DNA from: a virus
Lineage: Duplodnaviria > Heunggongvirae > Uroviricota > Caudoviricetes
Virus record (IMG/VR): IMGVR_UViG_2909288124_000002
Reading direction: 5' to 3' (one strand)
DNA length: 35,851 nucleotides
Below the pieces are notes generated by a model, which had not been told where the DNA came from, ran no database searches, and was given only the letters and a program-made list of their open reading frames with translations. The position numbers were made by a program, and so were the translations under genes. Shown here piece after piece: positions 1-34,563 of this stretch (position 1 is the first letter of the stretch; the number at the start of each line of letters is the position of its first letter).

Positions 1-234
1 ATGAAATCAAAAGACACCCTAAAGTGGTTCCCTGCGCAGCTTCCTGAAGTAAGAATTATCCTAGGGGATGCTGTAGTGGAAGTAGCAAAACAGGGAAGAC
101 CTATCAATACCAGAACATTGCTTGATTACATTGAAGGAAACATAAAGAAAAAATCATGGCTGGATAACAAAGAATTATTACAAACAGCGATATCAGTTCT
201 TAAAGACAACCAAAATTTAAATGGTAAAATGTAA
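1..234 (+). CDS. ydfK: YdfK/YnaE-family prophage protein (77 aa); window begins at its ATG
   Basis: 77-aa ORF MKSKDTLKWFPAQLPEVRIILGDAVVEVAKQGRPINTRTLLDYIEGNIKK... recognised as the YdfK/YnaE family that sits next to pin in Qin/Rac prophages; recalled from memory, not searched. Confidence 0.6.
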   Translation: MKSKDTLKWFPAQLPEVRIILGDAVVEVAKQGRPINTRTLLDYIEGNIKKKSWLDNKELLQTAISVLKDNQNLNGKM

Positions 235-540
235 TATAATAAACTTACTTTTTTATCATTTTTCCACTTTAACAACATTTTGCTCCACTTTTCCACGACC
301 AAACAACTTGAAATTTGGTTAAAATAACACGCAACACTATTCTTCTTCCTTGAGTCCGCCCGGAACTCGAAAAACAAACCGAGTTAAAGCCATTTTTCAC
401 AAAATCGATTTTGGGTCTCACCAAAGTTACGGGGTTGCATACGCATTCGTTTATTTTCGAACGTGTACATACAAATATGCACAAAAATAATCAAAATTAT
501 TTTCTGAGATGCATTATGATATGAACACCAATTTCGTATA

Positions 541-549
541 GAGTCTCAC
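541..549. repeat. Left copy of 9-bp target site duplication GAGTCTCAC flanking IS1
   Basis: Identical 9-mer GAGTCTCAC directly abuts both IS1 termini (541-549 and 1318-1326). Confidence 0.85.
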
Positions 550-564
550 GGTAATGACTCCAAC

Positions 565-1068
565 TTATTGATAGTGTTTTATGTTCAGATAATGCCCGAT
601 GACTTTGTCATGCAGCTCCACCGATTTTGAGAACGACAGCGACTTCCGTCCCAGCCGTGCCAGGTGCTGCCTCAGATTCAGGTTATGCCGCTCAATTCGC
701 TGCGTATATCGCTTGCTGATTACGTGCAGCTTTCCCTTCAGGCGGGATTCATACAGCGGCCAGCCATCCGTCATCCATATCACCACGTCAAAGGGTGACA
801 GCAGGCTCATAAGACGCCCCAGCGTCGCCATAGTGCGTTCACCGAATACGTGCGCAACAACCGTCTTCCGGAGCCTGTCATACGCGTAAAACAGCCAGCG
901 CTGGCGCGATTTAGCCCCGACGTATCCCCACTGTTCGTCCATTTCCGCGCAGACGATGACGTCACTGCCCGGCTGTATGCGCGAGGTTACCGACTGCGGC
1001 CTGAGTTTTTTAAATGGCGGAAAATCGTGTTGAGGCCAACGCCCATAATGCGGGCGGTTGCCCGGCAT
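565..1068 (-). CDS. insB: IS1 InsB reading frame (167 aa); expressed as InsAB' by -1 frameshift at A6C motif (plus coords 1005-1011)
   Basis: [19 protein letters not shown]...[10 protein letters not shown]... is IS1 InsB; AAAAAAC slippery motif is present on the minus strand in the insA/insB overlap. Confidence 0.9.
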
Positions 1069-1262
1069 CCAACGCCATTCATGGCCATATCAATGATTTT
1101 CTGGTGCGTACCGGGTTGAGAAGCGGTGTAAGTGAACTGCAGTTGCCATGTTTTACGGCAGTGAGAGCAGAGATAGCGCTGATGTCCGGCAGTGCTTTTG
1201 CCGTTACGCACCACCCCGTCAGTAGCTGAACAGGAGGGACAGCTGATAGAAACAGAAGCCAC
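987..1262 (-). CDS. insA: IS1 InsA (91 aa)
   Basis: [46 protein letters not shown]... is the IS1 InsA zinc-finger/HTH protein. Confidence 0.93.
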
Positions 1263-1317
1263 TGGAGCACCTCAAAAACACCATCATACACTAAATCAGT
1301 AAGTTGGCAGCATCACC

Positions 1318-1326
1318 GAGTCTCAC
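1318..1326. repeat. Right copy of 9-bp IS1 target site duplication GAGTCTCAC
   Basis: Exact repeat of 541-549; ends 1 nt before the invertase ATG at 1328. Confidence 0.85.
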
Positions 1327-1327
1327 T

Positions 1328-1918
1328 ATGTCTCGAATTTTTGCTTACTGTCGGATATCAACGCTGGATCAGACCACCGAAAATCAACGCCGGGAAATCG
1401 AAAGTGCAGGTTTTAAAATCAAACCTCAGCAAATAATCGAAGAACACATTAGCGGCTCAGCAGCAACCAGTGAGCGTCCTGGTTTTAACCGGTTGCTTGC
1501 TCGCCTGAAATGTGGTGATCAATTGATTGTGACAAAACTGGATCGCCTTGGTTGTAATGCAATGGATATCAGGAAAACAGTGGAACAACTGACCGAAACA
1601 GGTATCAGAGTGCATTGCTTAGCATTGGGGGGCATTGACCTGACCAGTCCAACAGGAAAAATGATGATGCACGTAATTTCAGCAGTCGCTGAATTTGAAC
1701 GAGACCTTTTACTTGAACGCACTCATTCCGGGATAGTAAGAGCCCGCGGCGCAGGGAAACGTTTTGGTCGACCACCTGTGTTAAATGAAGAACAGAAACA
1801 GGTGGTATTCGAACGAATTAAGTCAGGTGTAAGTATAAGTGCCATTGCCCGGGAATTCAAAACCTCGCGGCAAACCATTTTAAGAGCCAAAGCAAAACTT
1901 CAGACACCTGACATATAA
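1328..1918 (+). CDS. pinQ: Serine recombinase, Pin-type DNA invertase (196 aa)
   Basis: ORF from ATG at 1328: [29 protein letters not shown]... with N-terminal catalytic Ser motif and C-terminal HTH ([19 protein letters not shown]). The ORF-track start at 1304 lies inside IS1 and is rejected. Symbol is from memory of Qin/Rac Pin proteins. Confidence 0.8.
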
Positions 1919-2027
1919 AAAATAATCTCGGTGTGAGATGCTTTACGTCTTCCAAGCCCCCTTCCTTGCCGTAAATGGAAAGATACATCTAATTATAGAA
2001 TTTATATGTTTTACCCTACGGCAGTGC

Positions 2028-2031
2028 TGGC
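2028..2031. repeat. Left copy of putative 4-bp target site duplication TGGC flanking the IS3-family element
   Basis: TGGC at 2028-2031 and again at 3253-3256, immediately outside the TGACC...GGTCA termini. Confidence 0.6.
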
Positions 2032-2102
2032 TGACCTGCTCCCCGTTGATTAGTACACCCCGATGTTAGTAATGTCTTCATAAGCCACATGAGGACATCC
2101 CC

Positions 2103-2366
2103 ATGAAGAAGCGTTTTTCCGACGAACAGATCATCAGTATTCTCCGCGAAGCCGAAGCTGGGGTACCCGCCCGTGAACTCTGCCGCAAGCATGCCATTTC
2201 CGATGCCACGTTTTACACCTGGCGTAAGAAGTATGGCGGTATGGAGGTGCCTGAAGTTAAGCGCCTGAAGTCGCTTGAGGAAGAGAACACCAGACTCAAG
2301 AAGCTGCTTGCCGAAGCCATGCTGGATAAAGAGGCGCTTCAGGTGGCTCTTGGGCGAAAGTACTGA
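2103..2366 (+). CDS. IS3-family transposase OrfA (HTH, leucine-zipper region)
   Basis: 87-aa [49 protein letters not shown]... typical of IS3/IS407-group OrfA. Confidence 0.85.
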
Positions 2367-2389
2367 CGACAGACCAGAAGCGGGAAGCC

Positions 2390-3223
2390 GTGATGTTGAT
2401 GTGTGATGCGACCGGTCTGTCGCAACGTCGTGCCTGCAGGCTTACAGGTTTATCCCTGTCGACCTGCCGCTATGAGGCTCACCGTCCGGCTGCTGATGCG
2501 CATTTATCAGGGCGCATCACTGAGCTGGCACTGGAGCGCAGGCGTTTTGGCTACCGTCGTATTTGGCAGTTGCTGCGCCGTGAAGGGCTTCATGTTAATC
2601 ATAAGCGCGTGTACCGGCTTTATCACCTCAGTGGCCTGGGCGTAAAACGCAGAAGACGTCGTAAAGGGCTGGCAACAGAACGTCTGCCGCTGCTCCGTCC
2701 GGCGGCGCCCAATCTGACCTGGTCGATGGATTTCGTCATGGACGCACTTTCCACCGGTCGCAGGATCAAGTGTCTTACCTGCGTCGATGATTTCACAAAG
2801 GAATGCCTGACGGTCACTGTTGCCTTTGGGATTTCAGGCGTTCAGGTCACGCGTATTCTGGACAGCATTGCACTGTTTCGAGGCTATCCGGCGACGATAA
2901 GAACTGACCAGGGGCCGGAGTTCACTTGCCGTGCACTGGATCAATGGGCCTTTGAGCATGGTGTTGAGTTGCGCTTAATCCAGCCGGGCAAGCCAACGCA
3001 GAACGGATTTATTGAGAGCTTTAACGGACGATTTCGCGATGAATGTTTGAATGAGCACTGGTTCAGCGATATCGTTCATGCCAGGAAAATTATTAATGAC
3101 TGGCGGCAGGATTATAACGAATGCCGCCCGCACTCCACGCTGAATTATCAGACACCGTCTGAATTTGCAGCGGGCTGGAGAAAGGGTCATTCTGAGAATG
3201 AAGATTCCGACGTTACTAACTGA
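2390..3223 (+). CDS. IS3-family transposase OrfB (DDE integrase core); probably made as OrfAB fusion by -1 frameshift
   Basis: ORF (GTG-initiated in the ORF track) with DDE residues: ...WSMDFV..., ...IRTDQGPEF..., ...[13 protein letters not shown]...; frame is -1 relative to orfA. The slippery site was not located. Confidence 0.85.
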
Positions 3224-3249
3224 GTGTTGTATCTAATCGTGGGGGCAGG

Positions 3250-3816
3250 TCATGGCCATTCAATATCCTGTGCAGTTGACGTATCAACACGGTTCAGCAA
3301 TACCCGATACTTTTTCCATGCTTCCAGCAACGAGATTTCTTCCTCCGTTGCAATTTCCAGATCTGCAGCATCCTGAAGCGGCGCAATATGCTCACTGGCT
3401 ACCTGCATCAGGTTGTTTTTTGTTTCTTCCGCCTCCCGGATCCGGAACAGTTTTTCTGCTTCCGTATCCTTCACCCAGGCTGTGCCGTTCCACTTCTGAA
3501 ACTCCCCTTCCGGCGATAACCAGGTAACATTTTCCGGTAACGGACCGAGTTCAGAAATAAATAACGCGTCGCCGGAAGCCACGTCATAAACCGTTTTACC
3601 CCGATGATCTTCAACGAGATGCCACGATGACTCATCACTGTTGAAAACAGCCACGAAGCCAGCCGGAATATCTGGCGGTGCAATATCGGTACTGTTTGCT
3701 GGCAGACCTGTATGAGGCGGAATATATGCATCACCTTCACCAATAAATTCATTAGTTCCGGCCAGCAGATTATAAATTTTTATGGTCCGTGGTTGTTCAC
3801 TCATTCTGAATGCCAT
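3250..3816 (-). CDS. tfa: Tail fiber assembly protein Tfa (lambda Tfa-like), C-terminus truncated by the IS insertion
   Basis: 188-aa [42 protein letters not shown]... matches lambda Tfa; the stop codon TGA is supplied by the IS terminus (3250-3252). Confidence 0.88.
3253..3256. repeat. Right copy of putative 4-bp target site duplication TGGC
   Basis: See 2028-2031. Confidence 0.6.
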
Positions 3817-6800
3817 TATGCAAGCCTCACAATATAGTTAAATGCGATGTTTTTGACGGTGTTTTCCGCGTTACCAGCAGCGTTAACGGTGATGGTGTGT
3901 CCATGTGAACCAATCGCAACGGAGTGCGTATGAGCACCAATACCGACAGTATGCGCGTGTGCACCTGCAGATGCTGCTGTGCCGGACAGTGAGTGGCTAT
4001 GATTACCATCTGTACTGGTATTAGCTAACCACCCCGTAGACATACCTACTGAGCCTTGTACACCCCAGGTATTTTGACCTGAGCTTGTATAACCATATTG
4101 ATAAGTATCTTTAAAAACACTGGGGTTAAATCGACGGCCATCTCTATGGCTGTGATTACCAGCTGCATTCGTGCTGCCACTTAAACTATGGGTATGCGCA
4201 CCAGTGTTATTCGTGGATTTAGTGCCGTAATCAAACGACGATGTGGTTTTCGTCCCCAAATCCGTACTGGATGCGCTGGCGCTGTGGGTATGCGATTTAA
4301 TGCCGTCCTGTTCCTGAGACAATACGGCCCGACCACTGGCAGGTTTGCCCTTAATCGTCCAGCCACGCATATCAGGGATCACGCCTGACGGATAAGCCGC
4401 TGCAAGTTTCGGGTATGCAGATTTGTCAAAAGTCTGCCCCTGCATCAGGGCATAGCCAGACGGAACGGTATCTGATGGCCACGGGATTGGTGCACCGACT
4501 GGATAAAACTCTGCAGGAGGATGAGCCGAGGTGTAAAGCTGCGCCCACGGCGACCAGTTTGCGTCGGTCGTATCCCGTCGTGAACGAATAAATGCCGGAG
4601 CATGAGCACCGCTTGTACCACTCCAGCCGATGAGTAACTCACCTTCGCCAACGGCTGTCATCCCTTTCAGGTGAATGATATTTCCATACGCTGTTGGATA
4701 TCCGTTGTTATACACCTCGTATAACTCAAGACCTGCTGCCCCCTGCGTATTGTCTGTCAGCGCGGTTACCCGACCTTTTGAAGCCAGATTAACTGATGAT
4801 ACTGCTGTTCCACCTGACGGTAACGCCCCGATCTCTGATGCCGTTGGCTTATTTCTGGAGTTATAGTCCCTTCGCCAGCCAGGTGAATAATCTGTTCCGT
4901 GATTAATATAGGTAAACTGGGCGTTAGTTGTTCCACCACCAGTGGAGGTGGTCGGTGTGGTAATGCGGATCGTCATCGCTGACTTTATCCCCATTACTTC
5001 AATGACAGCTCCGGCGAGATGAATATTACCGCAGTCAGTATCAGTAATGATTTTATTATTGCCATAAGACCAGGAACCCTTGCACATCCAGTATGGATGG
5101 TTAAATGCTCCCTGAGAATCCAGCCACTCGATAAACTGTGCAGTCGTCCAGTTTCCTGTTGTTGTGCTTACTGACCCACCGAAGGCACGGCAGGCACCAA
5201 TATTTTTCGTAAAGGTATCTTTGCCAGGGATATCCGCACCGTTCTGATCTTTCTGCAGACGTTTCTCAGCATTGTCATTGGCTGCTTTTACTGCCTTTGG
5301 TGTCGCGGCAAGCGTTTCAGACGTGCTGTTGGTCGCGCTGCTTAGCTGGATTATCCCTTTCTGTGCTGTCGTTGCATCCTGTGCGGTGTATTTCCCGTTA
5401 GCCAGGTCATACGCGGCCTTAACGGCTTTTGGTGTTGCCGCCAGTGACTCGGAAGTGCTGTTAGTCGCACTACTGAGCTGTACTATCCCCTTTTTCGTCG
5501 TGCTCGCATCCTCAAGCGCCACGGCGGATGCAATATCCTCTGCCCGTTTTGCTGCTGTCTCGGCGCGCGTTGCTGCGGATTCTGCCGTACTTTTGCTCTG
5601 TGCTGCCGCTGCCGCACTGCCAGCAGCCTCTGTCGCCTTCGTGGATGCCGTCGTGGCGCTGCCCCTCGCTGCTGACGCCTGTCTGGTCGCCTCATCTTTT
5701 GAAGCAGACGCCGATGATGCCGATGACGCCGCCGAACTGGCGGACGATGCGGCAGCCGTTTTTGAGGATTCTGCGCTGGTTTCCGACGCTTTCGCGTTCG
5801 TTTCGGATGTCTTCGCTGCGGAAGCAGACCTCGCTGCTGCGCTGGCCTGTTCAGTGGCTTCGCCAGCCTTCGTTGTGGCTGTTGAAGCGGATGATGCGGC
5901 GCTTTCTGCCGATTTTCCGGCGGCGGTGGCACTGACTGCTGCCTCCTCTGCCTTAATGGACGCCTCACGGGCCGATGATGCAGCTGTTGTCTCAGAGTCT
6001 GCCGCAGCTGAGGCGCTCTGTTCCGCTGCCGTTTCAGAAGACTTAGCATTCGTCTCGGACGTTTTTGCCGCCTTCACGGAATTTCCTGCCGCCGTTGCCG
6101 AGGAGGCTGCACTGCTGGCGCTTGTGGAGGCGTTCGTTTCTGATGATTTTGCCGCCTCTTTGGAGGCCGCCGCATCCCGGGCTGAAGTGGCGGCTTCTGA
6201 CGCTTTCGTCGTCGCAGTGGATGCAGAAGTGGCTGCTGATTTTTGTGACGCTGCAGCATTCGTTTCTGACGTTTTCGCGGCACCGGCACTGGTGGCCGCC
6301 GCGCTTTTTGAGGACTCTGCAGCGGCAGCACTTTTTGATGCTTCAGTGGCCTTTGTTGATGCCGTTCCTGCGCTGGAAGACGCCTCCTGAGCCGACGTCG
6401 CGGCCTGTCCGGCTGACGTGCTGGCTGCACGCGCTGAGCCTGCAGCATCAGTCGCATGGGTTGCCGCCTCACTGGCAGATGTGCCGGCATCACTGGCTGA
6501 CTTCTTCGCGGCTGCCGTGTTCTGTGCCACCGCGGACGCGTTACGCGCCACCTCTTCCACCATCAGTTCAAAACGGCGCAGAGCCTCCGGACGGGCATCA
6601 TCCTCCGTCATGGCACCGAGAAAATCATTCAGCGTACCGGGTCGGGAATCTTCATACACGGTGATGGTCCCGGCATGTGACGGCGGGAATCCTTCCACCA
6701 ACAGAATAACGCTGTACTGACCGTACTCAACGTCCATGCTGTAACGCCCGGCTTCATCCGGATTTTCTGAGGCCAGCGTGTTCACCACCACCGTGGTGCT

Positions 6801-7621: not shown

Positions 7622-10600
7622 TCAACGAATACTGATGCCTGAAGCCGCTTTTTTGGTCACAATCACCGTACAGTCGGTGATATTACCTGCCCGCTGATTG
7701 CCTTTATGGAAAACCTTAAACTCCAGAGTGACGCTTCCCCTGCCACTCGGCATATCAATAACCGCACTGTAGCTACCGGGAATGGCCCCTTTAGTTTCTC
7801 TGGATGCGATTAATACACCGTTTTTGCGAACTTCAAAACCATAACCCGTGTATCTTGTACCTCCCGGGTTATTACCACTTCCCGGATCGCTATACGCTAT
7901 TCCGTTAAAGATAATGGGCGGAATAATGATTTGACGGTCAAAGTTATGATCATCGCTGATGGTGACTGTAACCGTCCCGTTTGGTGTTTCCGTATTACCC
8001 CACGTACCAGCCTGTTTCGGGAATGATTTGGATACAGCTTTAACGAAGTCACCTCTGACCTGAGTCGCCTCCAGCATGCCCTTAATCGTACAGTTTTCAT
8101 TTACCGTGACATTGTTGAGCGTCCCGGCGTTCGCATTCACACTGCCACTGATATCCGCATTTTTAGCGGTCAGCTTTCCGTCTGATGTCAGGGAAAATGC
8201 CGGTGGATTTCCACCGCTGGTAATGGTCGGGGCCGTCAGGCGCTTCAGGAACACGTCGTTCATAAATATCTGATTGCCCTGCGCCACAAACATCGGCGTT
8301 TCATTCCCGTTTGCCGGTTCAATAAACGCGATACGGTTAGCGGCAACCAGAAACTGGCTCAGCTTACCTTCTTCCGTGTCCTCCATGCTGAGGCCAATAC
8401 CCGCGACATAATGTTTGCCGTCTTTGGTCTGCTCAATTTTGACGCCCCACATGGCATTCCACTTATCGTTAGCGTCCTGCCACTCTTTCGAAAACTCCTC
8501 CAGTCTGCTGGCGTTATCCTCCGTCAGCTCGACTTTTTCCAGCAGCTCCTTGCCGAGATGGGATTCGGTTATCTGGCCTTTGAAAAAATCCAGGTAACCT
8601 TCCGCATCATCGCTCGCCTGACCGACAGCCTCCACGAATGCCGATTTGCCAACGGTGTTCACACTGCGGATATAAAAGTAATAATCATGGCCCGGTTTGA
8701 TATTGATACTGGCGGCTATCCAGTACAGCGCCGTACCAAGATAGCGGGCTGTGGTTTCAACCTGCCTGATATCGGTAATCCGCGTTTCCGAGAACCAGAA
8801 CTCAAACTGTACCGTCGGATCATAAACCGCAAGATGCGGCGTGGCAGTTATCTGAAAATAGCCCGGCGTCAGCTCAATCCGCGACGGCGCTGCCGGGGCG
8901 GCAATCCGGAACGATACCGACGCCGGATCGCCCTGCTGTCCCCGGGCATTTACCGCCCGGACCGTCAGCATGTAACGCCCCAGCGCCAGTTGCGTGAAGC
9001 GGTATGTGGTTTCCGTCGTCCGGGCCGTGCTGACCAGCCGCTCACTGCCGTCATCCGCTGCCACGGTCAGGCGAAGCAGGAAGCTCACGCCCTTCACCAC
9101 CTTCGGCGTGTCCCAGCGGGCCAGCACCTGATATTCCCCACTGTCTGCGGTGACTTCGGCAGTCAGGTGCTGCACCGCTGGCGGCGTGACACCATTCACC
9201 GTGCCGCTCTGGTCGCCGTCAAAGTGCGCCCCGTTATCCACGATGGCCTCTTTCTCCGGTACATGCTGCACGGCAGTGATGGCATACGTGCCGTCATCGT
9301 TCTCACGGATACTCACGCAGCGGAACAGGCGCTGGCGCAACGTCGGCAGCTTCAGCCCCCATATGCTGTATCCGGCAACGCCGTCAGGAACACGGCTCAC
9401 TTTTACCTTCACGCCGTCGGTGACGGACTGGACCTCCACGCTGACCGGATTGCCTCTTCCGTCAACCAGGCTTATCAGCGTGGTACCGGAGGATGGCAGC
9501 GTGATTTCACGGTCGAGCGTCAGCGTCCGGGTCTGGCTGTTCACCGCCAGCACGCGACCACCGGTGCTGATACCGGCATAGTCATCATCGCAGATTTCAA
9601 TGACATCGCCCGGTACATGGCGAAGCCCTTCAGCACCCACGCTGAAATCCACGGTCTGCGTCTCCAGCAGTTCCGTTTTAATCAGCCACAGCCCGGCGCG
9701 GTGTGCCTGCCCCCGGCTGGTACAGCCAAAGGCATCCATCTTCGTGACATTACGACCGTAACGGGCAATGGCCTGCGTATCTTCAACAAGCTCTGTCGCC
9801 GTCTCCCAGCCGTTGTTCGGGTCAATCCAGTTCACCTCAACGGCATTATGGCGGTCCTTCAGGGCGCTGAAGCTGTAGCGGAACGGCGCGCCATCATCCG
9901 GCATCACCACATTACTGCGGTTATAGGTCCACACCTTATCTGATGGTCGGTCCTGCACGAACGTCAGCGTCTGCCCGTTCCATACCGGCATACAGCGCAT
10001 CGCCGAGCAGAAATCACTGAGCACATCCCACGCCTTACGCTGCGTGGTCAGCCAGGCATTACAGGTGATGCGCGGCTCCGTGCCGCCAAAGCCGTCCGGC
10101 ACTGACTGGTCGCAGTACTGGCCGATGACATACAGCGCCCATTTATCCACATCCGCCGCACCAAGACGTTTCCCCATGCCGTAGCGCGGGTGGGTCAGCA
10201 TATCCCACAGACACCAGGCCGGGTTGTTGCTGTATGCCGGCTTAAACGTTCCGTCCCAGATACCGCTGTATTGCCGCGTCTGCGGGTTATAGTTCGACGG
10301 CACCTGCAGAATGCGCCCGCGAAGATGATAATTACGGCTCACCTGCTGGCTGCCGAACTGCTCCGAGTCCACCTGCACGCCGACCAGTGCCGTGTTCGGG
10401 TAGCACTTTTCACATCGATGATTTCGGTGTATGACGACCAGAGCGTTTTGTTCTGCAGCTGGTCTGTGGTGCTGTCCGGCGTCATCCTGCGCATCCGGAT
10501 ATTAAACGGGCGCGGCGGCAGGCTACCCACCACCACCGAGGCCAGATACTGCGAGGTGGTTTTGCCCTTAATGGTGATGTCTTTTTCCGTCACCCAGCCA

Positions 10601-11034
10601 CCGTTACGTTGTATCTGAACCAGCAGACGGACTTCCGACGGATTCCTGTCACCCTTTGAGGTGGTTTCCACCAGTGCCTGTACACCGAAGGTAAAGCGCA
10701 GACGGTCGATGTTTGCAGACGTAATGGTGCGGGTGATCGGCGTGTCATATTTCACTTCCGTACCCAGCACCGTCTCGGAGCCGGAGGATTCAAACCCCTC
10801 CGGCGGTGTCTGCTCCTGCTCACCGGCACGGAACACCACCGTGACACCGGAGATGTTGGTATTCCCCTCAGTGTCCAGCACCGGCGTACTGTTCAGCAGC
10901 ACGCTTTTTAATCCATCCACCGGACCTTCAACCGGCCCTTCGCTGATGGCATCGATCACACTCAGCAACTGCGTGGACTTCAGGTTGTCCTTCGCTTCGC
11001 GCGGGGTATGCCCCTTACTGCTTCCTTTACCCAT
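7622..11034 (-). pseudogene. J: Tail tip / host specificity protein J, interrupted by a frameshift near 10405-10412
   Basis: Two consecutive ORFs in different frames both match lambda J: 10339..11034 (MGKGSSKGHTPREAKDNLKSTQLLSVIDAISEGP...) and 7622..10378 ([27 protein letters not shown]...). The N-terminal frame ends ...[14 protein letters not shown] where lambda J continues ...[23 protein letters not shown]. Confidence 0.8.
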
Positions 11035-27024: not shown

Positions 27025-27435
27025 ATGGATCAGGTAGTCATTTTTAAACAAATATTTGATAAAGTTCGAAACGATTTAAACTATCAATGGTTTTATTCTG
27101 AGCTAAAACGTCACAATGTCTCACATTACATTTACTATTTAGCCACAGAGAATGTTCATATTGTATTAAAAAATGATAATACAGTGTTATTAAAGGGCCT
27201 AAAAAACATTGTGTCTGTCAAATTTTCAAAGGATAGGCATCTTATAGAAACGACCTCTAATAAGCTGAAATCCAGAGAGATCACATTTCAGGAATACAGA
27301 AGAAACCTTGCTAAAGCAGGAGTTTTTCGGTGGGTTACAAATATCCACGAACAAAAAAGATATTACTATACCTTTGATAATTCATTACTATTTACTGAAA
27401 GCATCCAGAAAACTACACAGATCTTACCACGCTAA
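27025..27435 (+). CDS. ydfO: DUF1398-family prophage protein YdfO (136 aa)
   Basis: From [43 protein letters not shown]...; the ORF track begins 5 codons upstream. Confidence 0.8.
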
Positions 27436-27586
27436 ACCATAACGTCCGGCTTCTCTCACTCCTGAGCCGGACTGCATTGGTTTAATAAAAACCATCAACA
27501 ATTGTGATTTAGATATTCGGAACCATTCAAATATAACAAAACCCCGTAAAAACGAGGTTTATGGATAAATTTTATTATTGAATACA

Positions 27587-32467: not shown

Positions 32468-33220
32468 TTATCTCGTCACCTTCCTCAATTGCGCTTCCGC
32501 GTATGCTTCTTCCTGCCAGCACTTTGTTACCAGTTTACCAATGACGTCCGCATACCCCTTATACCACTGATAATCGGTCAGGTCTGGTACCAGCTTCTGG
32601 ACATGACGTCGTGCCAGCGTGGTCGGTAAACGACTAAACCGGTTTCCATTACAACGCCCACAAATCTTATATACCGGTACGCCATGAAACCGGGTTCTTT
32701 TTTCATCCAGAACAATCCCTTTACCCTTACACCCTCTGCACGCTGTGCTGGCTTCGCCCTTACCATGGCAATGCTGACATAGTTCCTTCACCCATTCTTC
32801 CTTGATTACAGATTCCCCGCGTCTGTAGTGTTTCACCACTTCGCGCAATACATTATAAAATCCCGTACCTGAACAATGCTCACAGCGAGCCTTACTTGCC
32901 GCAGACCTGGAGTAATCAGCAAAGGCAAAACTCACGAGGTAAGGAATAATCTGTAACCGGATTTCTTCACTCAATTTGTTCAATGTCGGGTTATCCAGTG
33001 CCATCGCGTAATTTAGCAGGCCTTCAATCGCAAACTGAGGGTCCTGAACACCAACTTTTGCCAGAAATAAGGCCAACCCAAGTGGTGCTTTCGACTGCAC
33101 CATCCCCTGCGCTGCCATTACATCCGTAATTGTTAAACAACCGGTGCCTGTCGCTGGAGCGTCATCGCTCAATTTTGGAGATTTTGGGGAGTAATATTTT
33201 GGTAAGGCTTCAAGGTTCAT
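32468..33220 (-). CDS. quuQ: Late gene antiterminator Q (phage 21/82-type, 250 aa)
   Basis: From MNLEALPKYYSPKSPKLSDDAP...; Cys-rich zinc-binding region CEHCSGTG...CQHCHGKGEASTACRGCKGKG...CGRCNGN. The ORF track begins 10 codons upstream. Confidence 0.85.
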   Translation of the reverse strand: MNLEALPKYYSPKSPKLSDDAPATGTGCLTITDVMAAQGMVQSKAPLGLALFLAKVGVQDPQFAIEGLLNYAMALDNPTLNKLSEEIRLQIIPYLVSFAFADYSRSAASKARCEHCSGTGFYNVLREVVKHYRRGESVIKEEWVKELCQHCHGKGEASTACRGCKGKGIVLDEKRTRFHGVPVYKICGRCNGNRFSRLPTTLARRHVQKLVPDLTDYQWYKGYADVIGKLVTKCWQEEAYAEAQLRKVTR

Positions 33221-33233
33221 GCTCGTTCTCCAC

Positions 33234-34283
33234 TTACACCAGTACGCCAATTGCCAGCGCGCGATCGATAAAACGAAATATCAGCTCCAGTTGGGAGCCA
33301 TACTTATCTTCAAATGCCACTGTATCCGTATGCAGCTCGTTGTGATGCTTTCTGCACAAAGGCAACACAAAGAGATCATGTGCTTTTGTTCCCATTCCGC
33401 CCTGCCCGTGACCAATCAGATGATGCGGATCGTCGGCTGGCATACCGCAGCAAGCACACGGCTGTGTCTTAACCCAACGTGTGTATTTCTCCTTAACCCA
33501 GCGGCGACGTTTAGGCAGCTTCATGAAAGATTCCGGAGACTCTGGATCAACGGTGATGCTTACCACCGTCTTTTCCTGTGGTGATTTTTGTTGCTGGTGG
33601 GCGTAAGGCAACGGTGCAAGATTTTTTGTGCGTTGTTTCAATATGCTGGTGGCGGTCTGCTCTCCCGGTACGATGTCGCTTTCGCGGTACACCGAGCAGA
33701 TTTTTTCCGCTGGTAATCCCAGCGAACGACGCGATACAGCCTCAGGTAGTGCATCCACCACCTGATTGCAGACCGCCCACCAGGATAATTCAGCCAAAGA
33801 TAATTCCCGCTCCTGCGTACCGCTTATTGCGTGACGGATGACGTCAATCACCCATGCTGTCAGATTTTGTTGAGCAAGCAGCTCCAGTGATTCCGATGTC
33901 TGGTCACGCAGTTGGTTGTCGCAGTGCCAGCACAACACCATTGCGCCGGTACCATAACGGTGAATGACTGTTTCAGTGTGATGGTAATCGCCATTAGGCC
34001 ACTGGCAGGATGTAACATGACGTAATAGCCAGTCGGACAATGCGCCAACGCCGCCAGCAGCACGAATCACCCGTTCGTTACTAAAAAACGGCAGCAATGT
34101 TTTGTCTTCCGCCAGCGGCTGGCGAACGGCAGGAACGACTCCGGATGGCAGATTACGCATGCTTTTTGGTTCCGGTTCCACCAGCACTCGAGGATTATGA
34201 AATATCTGTATGGATTCACGGCCCGGCTTAAGGACCACCAGCCCAAGCTCAGGCACCAGAACAGGTCTAAGTAATACCCGCAC
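33234..34283 (-). CDS. ydfU: YdfU-like DUF968 protein with C-terminal HNH-like zinc-finger motif
   Basis: ORF ...CACCGMPADDPHHLIGHGQGGMGTKAHDLFVLPLCRKHHNELH... Start uncertain: GTG at 34283 directly follows the upstream ORF stop (TAA-C-GTG); the ORF track extends to 34322. Confidence 0.75.
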   Translation of the reverse strand: MRVLLRPVLVPELGLVVLKPGRESIQIFHNPRVLVEPEPKSMRNLPSGVVPAVRQPLAEDKTLLPFFSNERVIRAAGGVGALSDWLLRHVTSCQWPNGDYHHTETVIHRYGTGAMVLCWHCDNQLRDQTSESLELLAQQNLTAWVIDVIRHAISGTQERELSLAELSWWAVCNQVVDALPEAVSRRSLGLPAEKICSVYRESDIVPGEQTATSILKQRTKNLAPLPYAHQQQKSPQEKTVVSITVDPESPESFMKLPKRRRWVKEKYTRWVKTQPCACCGMPADDPHHLIGHGQGGMGTKAHDLFVLPLCRKHHNELHTDTVAFEDKYGSQLELIFRFIDRALAIGVLV

Positions 34284-34284
34284 G

Positions 34285-34563
34285 TTACCTCCAGATCCGT
34301 TGCTGGAAAGTGCGGGACGCACGTGGTGGGCGTTCGGAATAAGGCAGCCTGACAGAGATTATCCAGTGCCGATAGTCGAGACTGAGAGCTTTCTTAACCT
34401 CGAACCCGCGCCTGCGGTAAGAATGAATCAGCCATTCGGCCTGTTCTGCAGTGCATGGAGGGTGCTGGAACCATTCAGACTTGAATGCGTGAGAATACCG
34501 CCCGTGCGTGCAGGCAAGAACGGGCGAATTATCAGAATTGTAATATTTTGCGTTGCGTGCCAT
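34285..34563 (-). CDS. Hypothetical protein (92 aa), apparently translationally coupled to ydfU
   Basis: ORF MARNAKYYNSDNSPVLACTHGRYSHAFKSEWFQHPPCTAEQAEWLIHSYRRRGFEV...; stop abuts the candidate ydfU start; family not recognised. Confidence 0.5.
   Translation of the reverse strand: MARNAKYYNSDNSPVLACTHGRYSHAFKSEWFQHPPCTAEQAEWLIHSYRRRGFEVKKALSLDYRHWIISVRLPYSERPPRASRTFQQRIWR

Follow-up and report, generated by a model that had tools for sequence, protein, structure and literature searches.

An IS1 insertion between pinQ and its assigned promoter in a Qin-type prophage of Escherichia coli

In the 35,851-bp stretch of DNA analysed here (hereafter the window), a complete IS1 element ends 10 bases upstream of the ATG of an invertase-type recombinase gene. 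This raises the questions of which recombinase gene it is, whether the element arrived by transposition and what it does to expression of the gene. These questions have gained some interest from the work of Kirigo et al. 2025, who report for PinQ of Qin an inversion in trans of a 1,797-bp stretch of prophage e14, the P segment (PMC12529663). The inversion creates StfE2, which blocks adsorption of T2, and expression of pinQ/pinR goes up about 14-fold on T2 infection (PMC12529663). The explanation that accounts best for the data overall, and in which we have considerable confidence, is an ordinary IS1 insertion that most likely silences pinQ, or lowers its transcription strongly, and detaches the gene from its normal, phage-inducible control. 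The features on which this is based are the following (coordinates are those of the window).

1–234, plus strand: ydfK, YnaE/YdfK cold-shock family, 77 aa (open reading frame; aligns with ydfK of strain 873.10 and K-12)
235–549, plus strand: native ydfK-pinQ spacer, now split from pinQ (aligned with K-12 and 873.10; 34% GC)
464–491, plus strand: sigma-70 promoter TGTACA-16-AATAAT (promoter scan; same hexamers given for pinQ and pinR in PMC3946193)
541–549, no strand: left copy of the 9-bp target-site duplication GAGTCTCAC (sequence and repeat search)
550–1317, minus strand: IS1, 768 bp, 8 differences from K-12 IS1A and 1 from copies labelled 'IS1B'
550–572, no strand: IS1 right inverted repeat, insB-distal end (repeat search), with a match to the IHF consensus inside (561–573)
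565–1068, minus strand: insB' frame with the IS1 DDE transposase domain (Pfam PF03400, E=2e-78)
987–1262, minus strand: insA, 91 aa, zinc ribbon and helix-turn-helix (Pfam PF03811 and PF12759; translation)
1005–1011, minus strand: A6C motif (AAAAAAC) for programmed -1 frameshifting from insA to insB' (sequence check)
1295–1317, no strand: IS1 left inverted repeat, insA-proximal, toward pinQ (exact GGTGATGCTGCCAACTTACTGAT on the minus strand)
1318–1326, no strand: right copy of the target-site duplication GAGTCTCAC (sequence and repeat search)
1328–1918, plus strand: pinQ, intact 196-aa invertase-type serine recombinase (Pfam; Ser10 in YCRISTLDQ)

Judged from sequence and gene order, the locus is a Qin-type lambdoid prophage and the gene is pinQ. 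The initial annotation was right in calling the product an invertase-type recombinase (Pfam Resolvase PF00239, E=4e-36; HTH_7 PF02796, E=4e-11), but had taken the gene for pin, which belongs to e14. Over 27.9 kb (3253–31123), the window shares 99.96% identity with a Qin-type prophage in strain 873.10 (E. coli O18ac:H14), which is bordered there by ydfJ/ynfT/ydfK and rspB; the ydfJ side is beyond the window. The stretch 1318–2031, with pinQ inside, has 100% DNA identity to a stretch of 873.10 annotated as pinQ. The synteny ydfK-pin-tfa-stf and the Qin gene set are present, and the gene order is that of the cryptic prophage Qin of K-12, with additional tail and head genes that are absent from K-12. 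The sequence and synteny features of PinQ/PinR are thus all found, and the protein is a putative invertase of the e14 P segment, an activity reported for PinQ of K-12 (PMC12529663); e14 itself is not part of the window. Exactly this PinQ protein occurs in 26,575 blocks of a public assembly collection, and among the matches listed the context was an intact 316-nt spacer in 10 out of 10. An undamaged gene and a very common allele suggest that the insertion of IS1 is recent.

Several other features of this prophage deserve mention. A second insertion sequence, a 1,221-bp IS3-family element unrelated to IS1, is found 113 nt downstream of the pinQ stop codon (2032–3252). It has terminal repeats (TGACCTGC.../...GCAGGTCA), a 4-bp duplication (TGGC at 2028–2031 and 3253–3256), orfA (2103–2366) and orfB (2390–3223), and it matches the IS1222 frameshift element of Rfam at 2333–2450 (156.6 bits). 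With IS1 on one side and this element on the other, pinQ is a 714-bp island between two insertion sequences. The final few codons of tfaQ were replaced by the IS3-family element (188 aa here vs 191 aa in 873.10), and the coding region of tfaQ holds a full-length Rfam match to IS009 (RF02111; 3275–3473, minus strand, 220.9 bits, E=4e-55). Apart from the IS1222 and IS009 matches, which lie elsewhere, Rfam gave no structured RNA or known sRNA for the spacer (1–4000 searched). Relative to 873.10, where the tail-tip gene J is a single open reading frame of 1,137 aa, the window has a 1-nt deletion at 10408 that breaks J into two open reading frames on the minus strand (7622–10378 and 10339–11034); the Pfam J domains of the window are spread over both pieces. 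This is either a real frameshift that makes the tail of the prophage defective or a homopolymer sequencing error. A 1-nt insertion relative to 873.10 is found at 27548. The segment 31124–35851, with a Q antiterminator (32468–33250) and a DUF968 gene (33234–34322), is absent from 873.10, where an IS1 abutting a truncated integrase is found in its place.

The element upstream of pinQ has all the features of IS1 proper that we looked for: the length and the terminal repeats, insA and insB' with the A6C site, a target duplication and near-identity to known copies. Read from the sequence, it begins at 550 with GGTAATGACTCC... and ends at 1317 with ...GGCAGCATCACC (in longer form, GGTAATGACTCCAACTTATTGAT... 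and ...ATCAGTAAGTTGGCAGCATCACC). Both of the imperfect terminal inverted repeats of about 23 bp (GGTGATGCTGCCAACTTACTGAT / GGTAATGACTCCAACTTATTGAT) are present, and the slippery site, with AAAAAAC at IS1 coordinate 307, is intact. It differs from K-12 IS1A in 8 of 768 nt (99.0% identity) and in a single nucleotide from copies that PGAP labels IS1B; the copy that 873.10 carries at the int end of Qin is the same in every nucleotide. Apparently, everything needed for transposition is there, and the element may well be functional. Its insA end points toward pinQ, and transcription of IS1 itself therefore heads away from the gene; an inward promoter-like site for insA was found by the promoter scan inside the left inverted repeat (1310 to 1283, minus strand). 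Coordinates, Pfam domains and inverted repeats thus bear out the identity, the 768-bp length and the orientation first assigned to the element.

The 9-bp sequence GAGTCTCAC flanks IS1 as an exact direct repeat with a spacing of 777 bp and the terminal inverted repeats just within. It occurs only twice in the window, against a mean of 0.16 in shuffled sequences. As had been noted from the letters alone, the repeats are perfect at both ends of the element and the right copy stops at 1326, followed by a T at 1327 and the ATG of pinQ at 1328. The right copy together with T1327 retains the native 10 nt 5' of the ATG, so that the translation signals are unchanged. To reconstruct the empty site, 241–549 was joined to 1327–1626, by which IS1 and one copy of the repeat were removed. 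The resulting 609 bp were found in one piece and at 100% identity in 7 complete E. coli genomes and, at a coverage of at least 80%, in 2,745 of 5,426 genomes, where the gene is annotated as pinQ or 'recombinase family protein'. The ydfK-pinQ spacer of K-12 MG1655 likewise has a single GAGTCTCAC, then T and ATG (...CGTATAGAGTCTCACTATG...). This is the arrangement that the initial annotation had predicted for uninterrupted genomes, and it shows that the insertion and its target duplication are real; a chance repeat is ruled out by the reconstruction.

What does the insertion do to pinQ? By genomic SELEX, Shimada et al. 2014 assigned an RpoD-holoenzyme 'constitutive promoter' with the hexamers TGTACA-16-AATAAT to the ydfK-pinQ and ynaE-pinR spacers; the assignment is based on RNA polymerase binding and hexamer prediction and not on a mapped 5' end (PMC3946193). 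The ydfK-pinQ spacer is also flagged for H-NS (PMC3946193), and in a tiling-array study ydfK and pinQ behaved as one transcript (PMC6505713). The promoter scan of the window returned the listed promoter at 464–491, in the part of the spacer (235–549) that had been proposed to carry the native promoter. In the empty site it would be about 60 bp upstream of the ATG, whereas it is now about 836 bp upstream. That the promoter was moved away from the gene is therefore correct, but the distance is 777 bp (IS1 plus one copy of the repeat) and not 768 bp as first given. A consensus scan, which required an A at position 2 and a T at position 6 of the -10 hexamer, found no promoter-like site on the plus strand between 492 and 1634, and no intrinsic terminator was predicted in 1–2100, IS1 included.

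IS1 thus moved into the AT-rich ydfK-pinQ spacer by ordinary transposition, and the staggered cut gave rise to the 9-bp duplication. The element now lies between pinQ and its assigned sigma-70 promoter and also blocks the way of any read-through from ydfK. RNA from either source would first have to run through 768 nt of IS1, antisense and untranslated, before it reached the gene. Polarity by Rho-dependent termination is classic for IS1 in either orientation; since no intrinsic terminator is predicted, polarity across the element would rest on Rho. The initial annotation considered expression of the gene to be altered or silenced, and the lack of promoter-like sites on the plus strand between 492 and the ATG strengthens this view: pinQ is probably transcriptionally silenced, or at least strongly lowered in transcription, and uncoupled from its normal control. 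Some considerations speak against silencing. Weak or non-sigma-70 outward promoters inside IS1 may lie beyond the reach of a consensus scan, and induction of pinQ/pinR by T2 might not need the displaced DNA (PMC12529663). Any phenotype may also be masked by the paralogues pinR and e14 pin elsewhere in the genome. For annotation purposes, pinQ is best described here as intact but probably promoter-less.

The alternative that survives best is that pinQ is still expressed, or even up-regulated, by transcription entering from IS1, be it from a hybrid promoter, from a cryptic antisense promoter in IS1 or by read-through from ydfK or the native promoter. IS1-generated hybrid promoters were reportedly described by Prentki et al. 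as early as 1986. The inverted repeat of IS1 carries an outward -35 box, and IS1 is documented to activate neighbouring genes given a correctly spaced -10 (PMC8764528; PMC9330008). The outward -35 is present at the insA end (TTGGCA, 1304–1309, matching the consensus in 5 of 6 positions), the element has no predicted intrinsic terminator, and, owing to the duplication, the ATG still has its native 10 nt in front of it. However, the hexamer 17 nt after TTGGCA is TATGTC (1327–1332), which matches in only 3 of 6 positions. It has no conserved T at its end, includes the ATG itself and was not reported by the scan; transcription starting about 7 nt further on would begin inside the open reading frame, upstream of the Ser10 codon, and give an RNA that lacks the start codon. 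The hexamers at 16 and 18 nt, CTATGT and ATGTCT, are worse, and the scan gave no promoter-like site on the plus strand within IS1. Of the two elements of a hybrid promoter, the outward -35 in the IS end is thus found, but a -10 at 16–18 nt with a start upstream of the ATG is not, and a promoter made from IS1 and the flank was rejected because both its spacing and its sequence speak against it. In cases that lacked a good -10, IS1 upstream of osmB lowered expression and IS1 upstream of ugd did not change it (PMC8764528). Without a usable -10 at pinQ, loss and not gain of expression is the expected effect, and we regard transcription of pinQ from IS1 as unlikely.

The exact insertion was not found in any of the 5,426 complete E. 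coli genomes, nor did the GTDB species representatives contain the exact 35-mer that spans its right junction. In those complete genomes, however, IS1 has entered the 316-bp spacer at least about ten times independently, in one orientation or the other. These insertions are listed with our locus handles; each position refers to the window and gives either the duplication or the left junction.

L007: 309–316, orientation as in the window; IS1 in the spacer
L001 and L008: 472–479, as in the window; L008 has the same right junction and a left-side deletion
L035: 474, as in the window; right side deleted
L006: 483–490, as in the window; inside the -10 hexamer
L015: 514, as in the window; IS1 in the spacer
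L004: 515–523, as in the window; IS1 in the spacer
L002/L003: 529–536, as in the window; IS1 in the spacer
L014 and L032: left junction 536, as in the window; pin or the whole prophage deleted
L033/L034: 548, as in the window; an IS1 variant with 46 nt different, pinR deleted
L010: 310–318, opposite orientation; IS1 in the spacer
L018: 309–317 and 535, opposite orientation; two IS1 copies in one spacer
L016/L017: 537, opposite orientation; IS1 in the spacer

Four further copies are found inside the pin open reading frame (L011, L012, L013 and L031). The IS1 copies vary among themselves by as many as 52 nt and come with duplications of their own (8–9 bp); the insertions in the spacer are therefore independent events. 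According to the initial annotation, IS1 ends at other positions in related genomes would refute the insertion described here. Such ends do exist, yet they stem from separate insertions by other IS1 variants, with duplications of their own, and do not refute it.

The neighbourhood of these copies is variable. Strain I3 (L018) has two IS1 elements in the same orientation (1201–1968 and 2196–2963 of that locus) in one ynaE/ydfK-pin spacer. In the nearest relative, 873.10, an IS3-family element of about 1.33 kb (L005, 3543–4876) is inserted at window position 542/543, 7 bp from the IS1 site, and is flanked by an unusually long duplication of 16 bp (ACCAATTTCGTATAGA); IS3-family elements normally make duplications of 3–5 bp. 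By BLAST it is unrelated to the IS1222-like element of the window. Deletions end at the spacer IS1 in L014 (strain a7), L015, L016, L017 and L032–L035: in strain a7 the entire Qin prophage is gone (ydfK-IS1-int'-rspB), and other strains lack, beside the spacer IS1, either just pin or a stretch that reaches from pin into the tail or head genes. The copy in the window is a ready substrate for such deletions of pin or of the whole prophage. Since the IS1 at the int end in 873.10 is identical and in the same orientation, recombination between the two would be able to remove the prophage from a strain that has both. Downstream of pinR in strain PSJ-23 (L001, 3175–4186), tfa is truncated, a recombinase fragment of 195 nt lies on the opposite strand, and a tail-fibre gene on the plus strand is truncated as well, which suggests a local inversion or rearrangement beside pinR.

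Such an accumulation raises the question whether the insertion is neutral at all, or whether recurrent hits by insertion sequences are selected because switching off the PinQ/PinR recombinase removes a cost, for example that of P-segment inversion in e14. The number of independent insertions in only 316 bp, together with the four in the open reading frame, would fit, as would the different IS1 variant in L033/L034, whose left junction is 1 bp from that of the window, and the IS3-family element 7 bp away in 873.10. The PinQ report also has a results section on a fitness cost of inversion (PMC12529663). Against selection stand the composition of the spacer (34% GC, and 29% in its last 90 bp, compared with 52% for the window) and the tolerance of cryptic-prophage spacers for insertions. 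IS1 prefers AT-rich DNA, a preference that Zerbib et al. are said to have described in 1985, and the AT-rich spacer fits it; target preference and neutrality together would explain the clustering without selection. Moreover, about 2,745 genomes have an intact spacer and only a few dozen an interrupted one. An orientation bias seemed to exist at first, when seven spacer insertions were found that were all oriented as in the window, but this was an artefact of joining hits on the same strand: a control search with reversed IS1 recovered copies in the opposite orientation (310–318, 309–317, 535 and 537), and the bias was gone. An IHF site in the target, as at the IS1 hot spot of pBR322, was considered and rejected, as WATCAANNNNTTR occurs in the window only at 561–573, in the right end of IS1, and at 27049; the spacer has no IHF consensus. 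We therefore consider a selected insertion to be quite improbable. It is tempting to speculate further that the tightly packed IS1 and IS3-family hits, some only 1–7 bp apart, reflect selection for switching off or rewiring an anti-phage system triggered by the recombinase. If this were true, mobile elements would be natural on/off switches of a chain from PinQ via inversion of the e14 P segment to StfE2 defence, but the proposal is very improbable. An assembly artefact, finally, in which an IS1 repeat was misplaced, can be dismissed for practical purposes: repeats are a classic cause of mis-joins and IS1 is multicopy (at a median of 11 places per E. coli genome), but a mis-join would neither give a perfect 9-bp target duplication exactly at both termini nor an empty site that rebuilds at 100% identity.

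Taken together, ordinary insertion of IS1 with probable silencing of pinQ is the preferred reading, and what the window shows is a routine insertion polymorphism, caused by IS1, of a cryptic prophage; the element, the gene, the mechanism and the type of consequence are all known. The one sense in which the allele is new is trivial: the complete genomes searched do not have it.

This is also evident from a comparison with known systems. In length, inverted repeats, insA/insB', the A6C site and the duplication of 9 bp of an AT-rich target, the element is like IS1A and IS1B of E. coli K-12 and relatives; there is no difference in the element itself and the site alone is new. As in the hybrid promoters that IS1 forms at afaA in ST131 (PMC8764528), acrEF and blaTEM, an outward -35 is located beside the 5' end of a gene; unlike in those, there is no usable -10 at 16–18 nt and the candidate overlaps the ATG. 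The spacer insertions in EC21Z-137, CT29, S163-2, PSJ-23, EC0880B, B379 and HCP8S3_I1 are in the same spacer, ydfK-pinQ or ynaE-pinR, have 8–9 bp duplications (CAATTTCG, TATGATATG, AAAAATAA, CAAATATG, TGAAATCT) and likewise separate the gene from the TGTACA-16-AATAAT promoter or destroy it. Their left junctions (316–318, 474–479, 490, 514, 523, 535–537 and 548) differ from that of the window. Here the insertion is simple, neither flank is damaged, and of all those that keep pin it is the nearest to the ATG. The mild interest of the allele comes solely from the recently reported inhibition of phage by PinQ/PinR (Kirigo et al. 2025, PMC12529663). A pinQ without its promoter would be expected to lose the response to T2 unless pinR or e14 pin substitutes for it, neither of which the window can show; strains that carry this allele are natural candidates for having lost the anti-phage response. 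The gene is the same as in that system, but here it is cut off from its upstream DNA.
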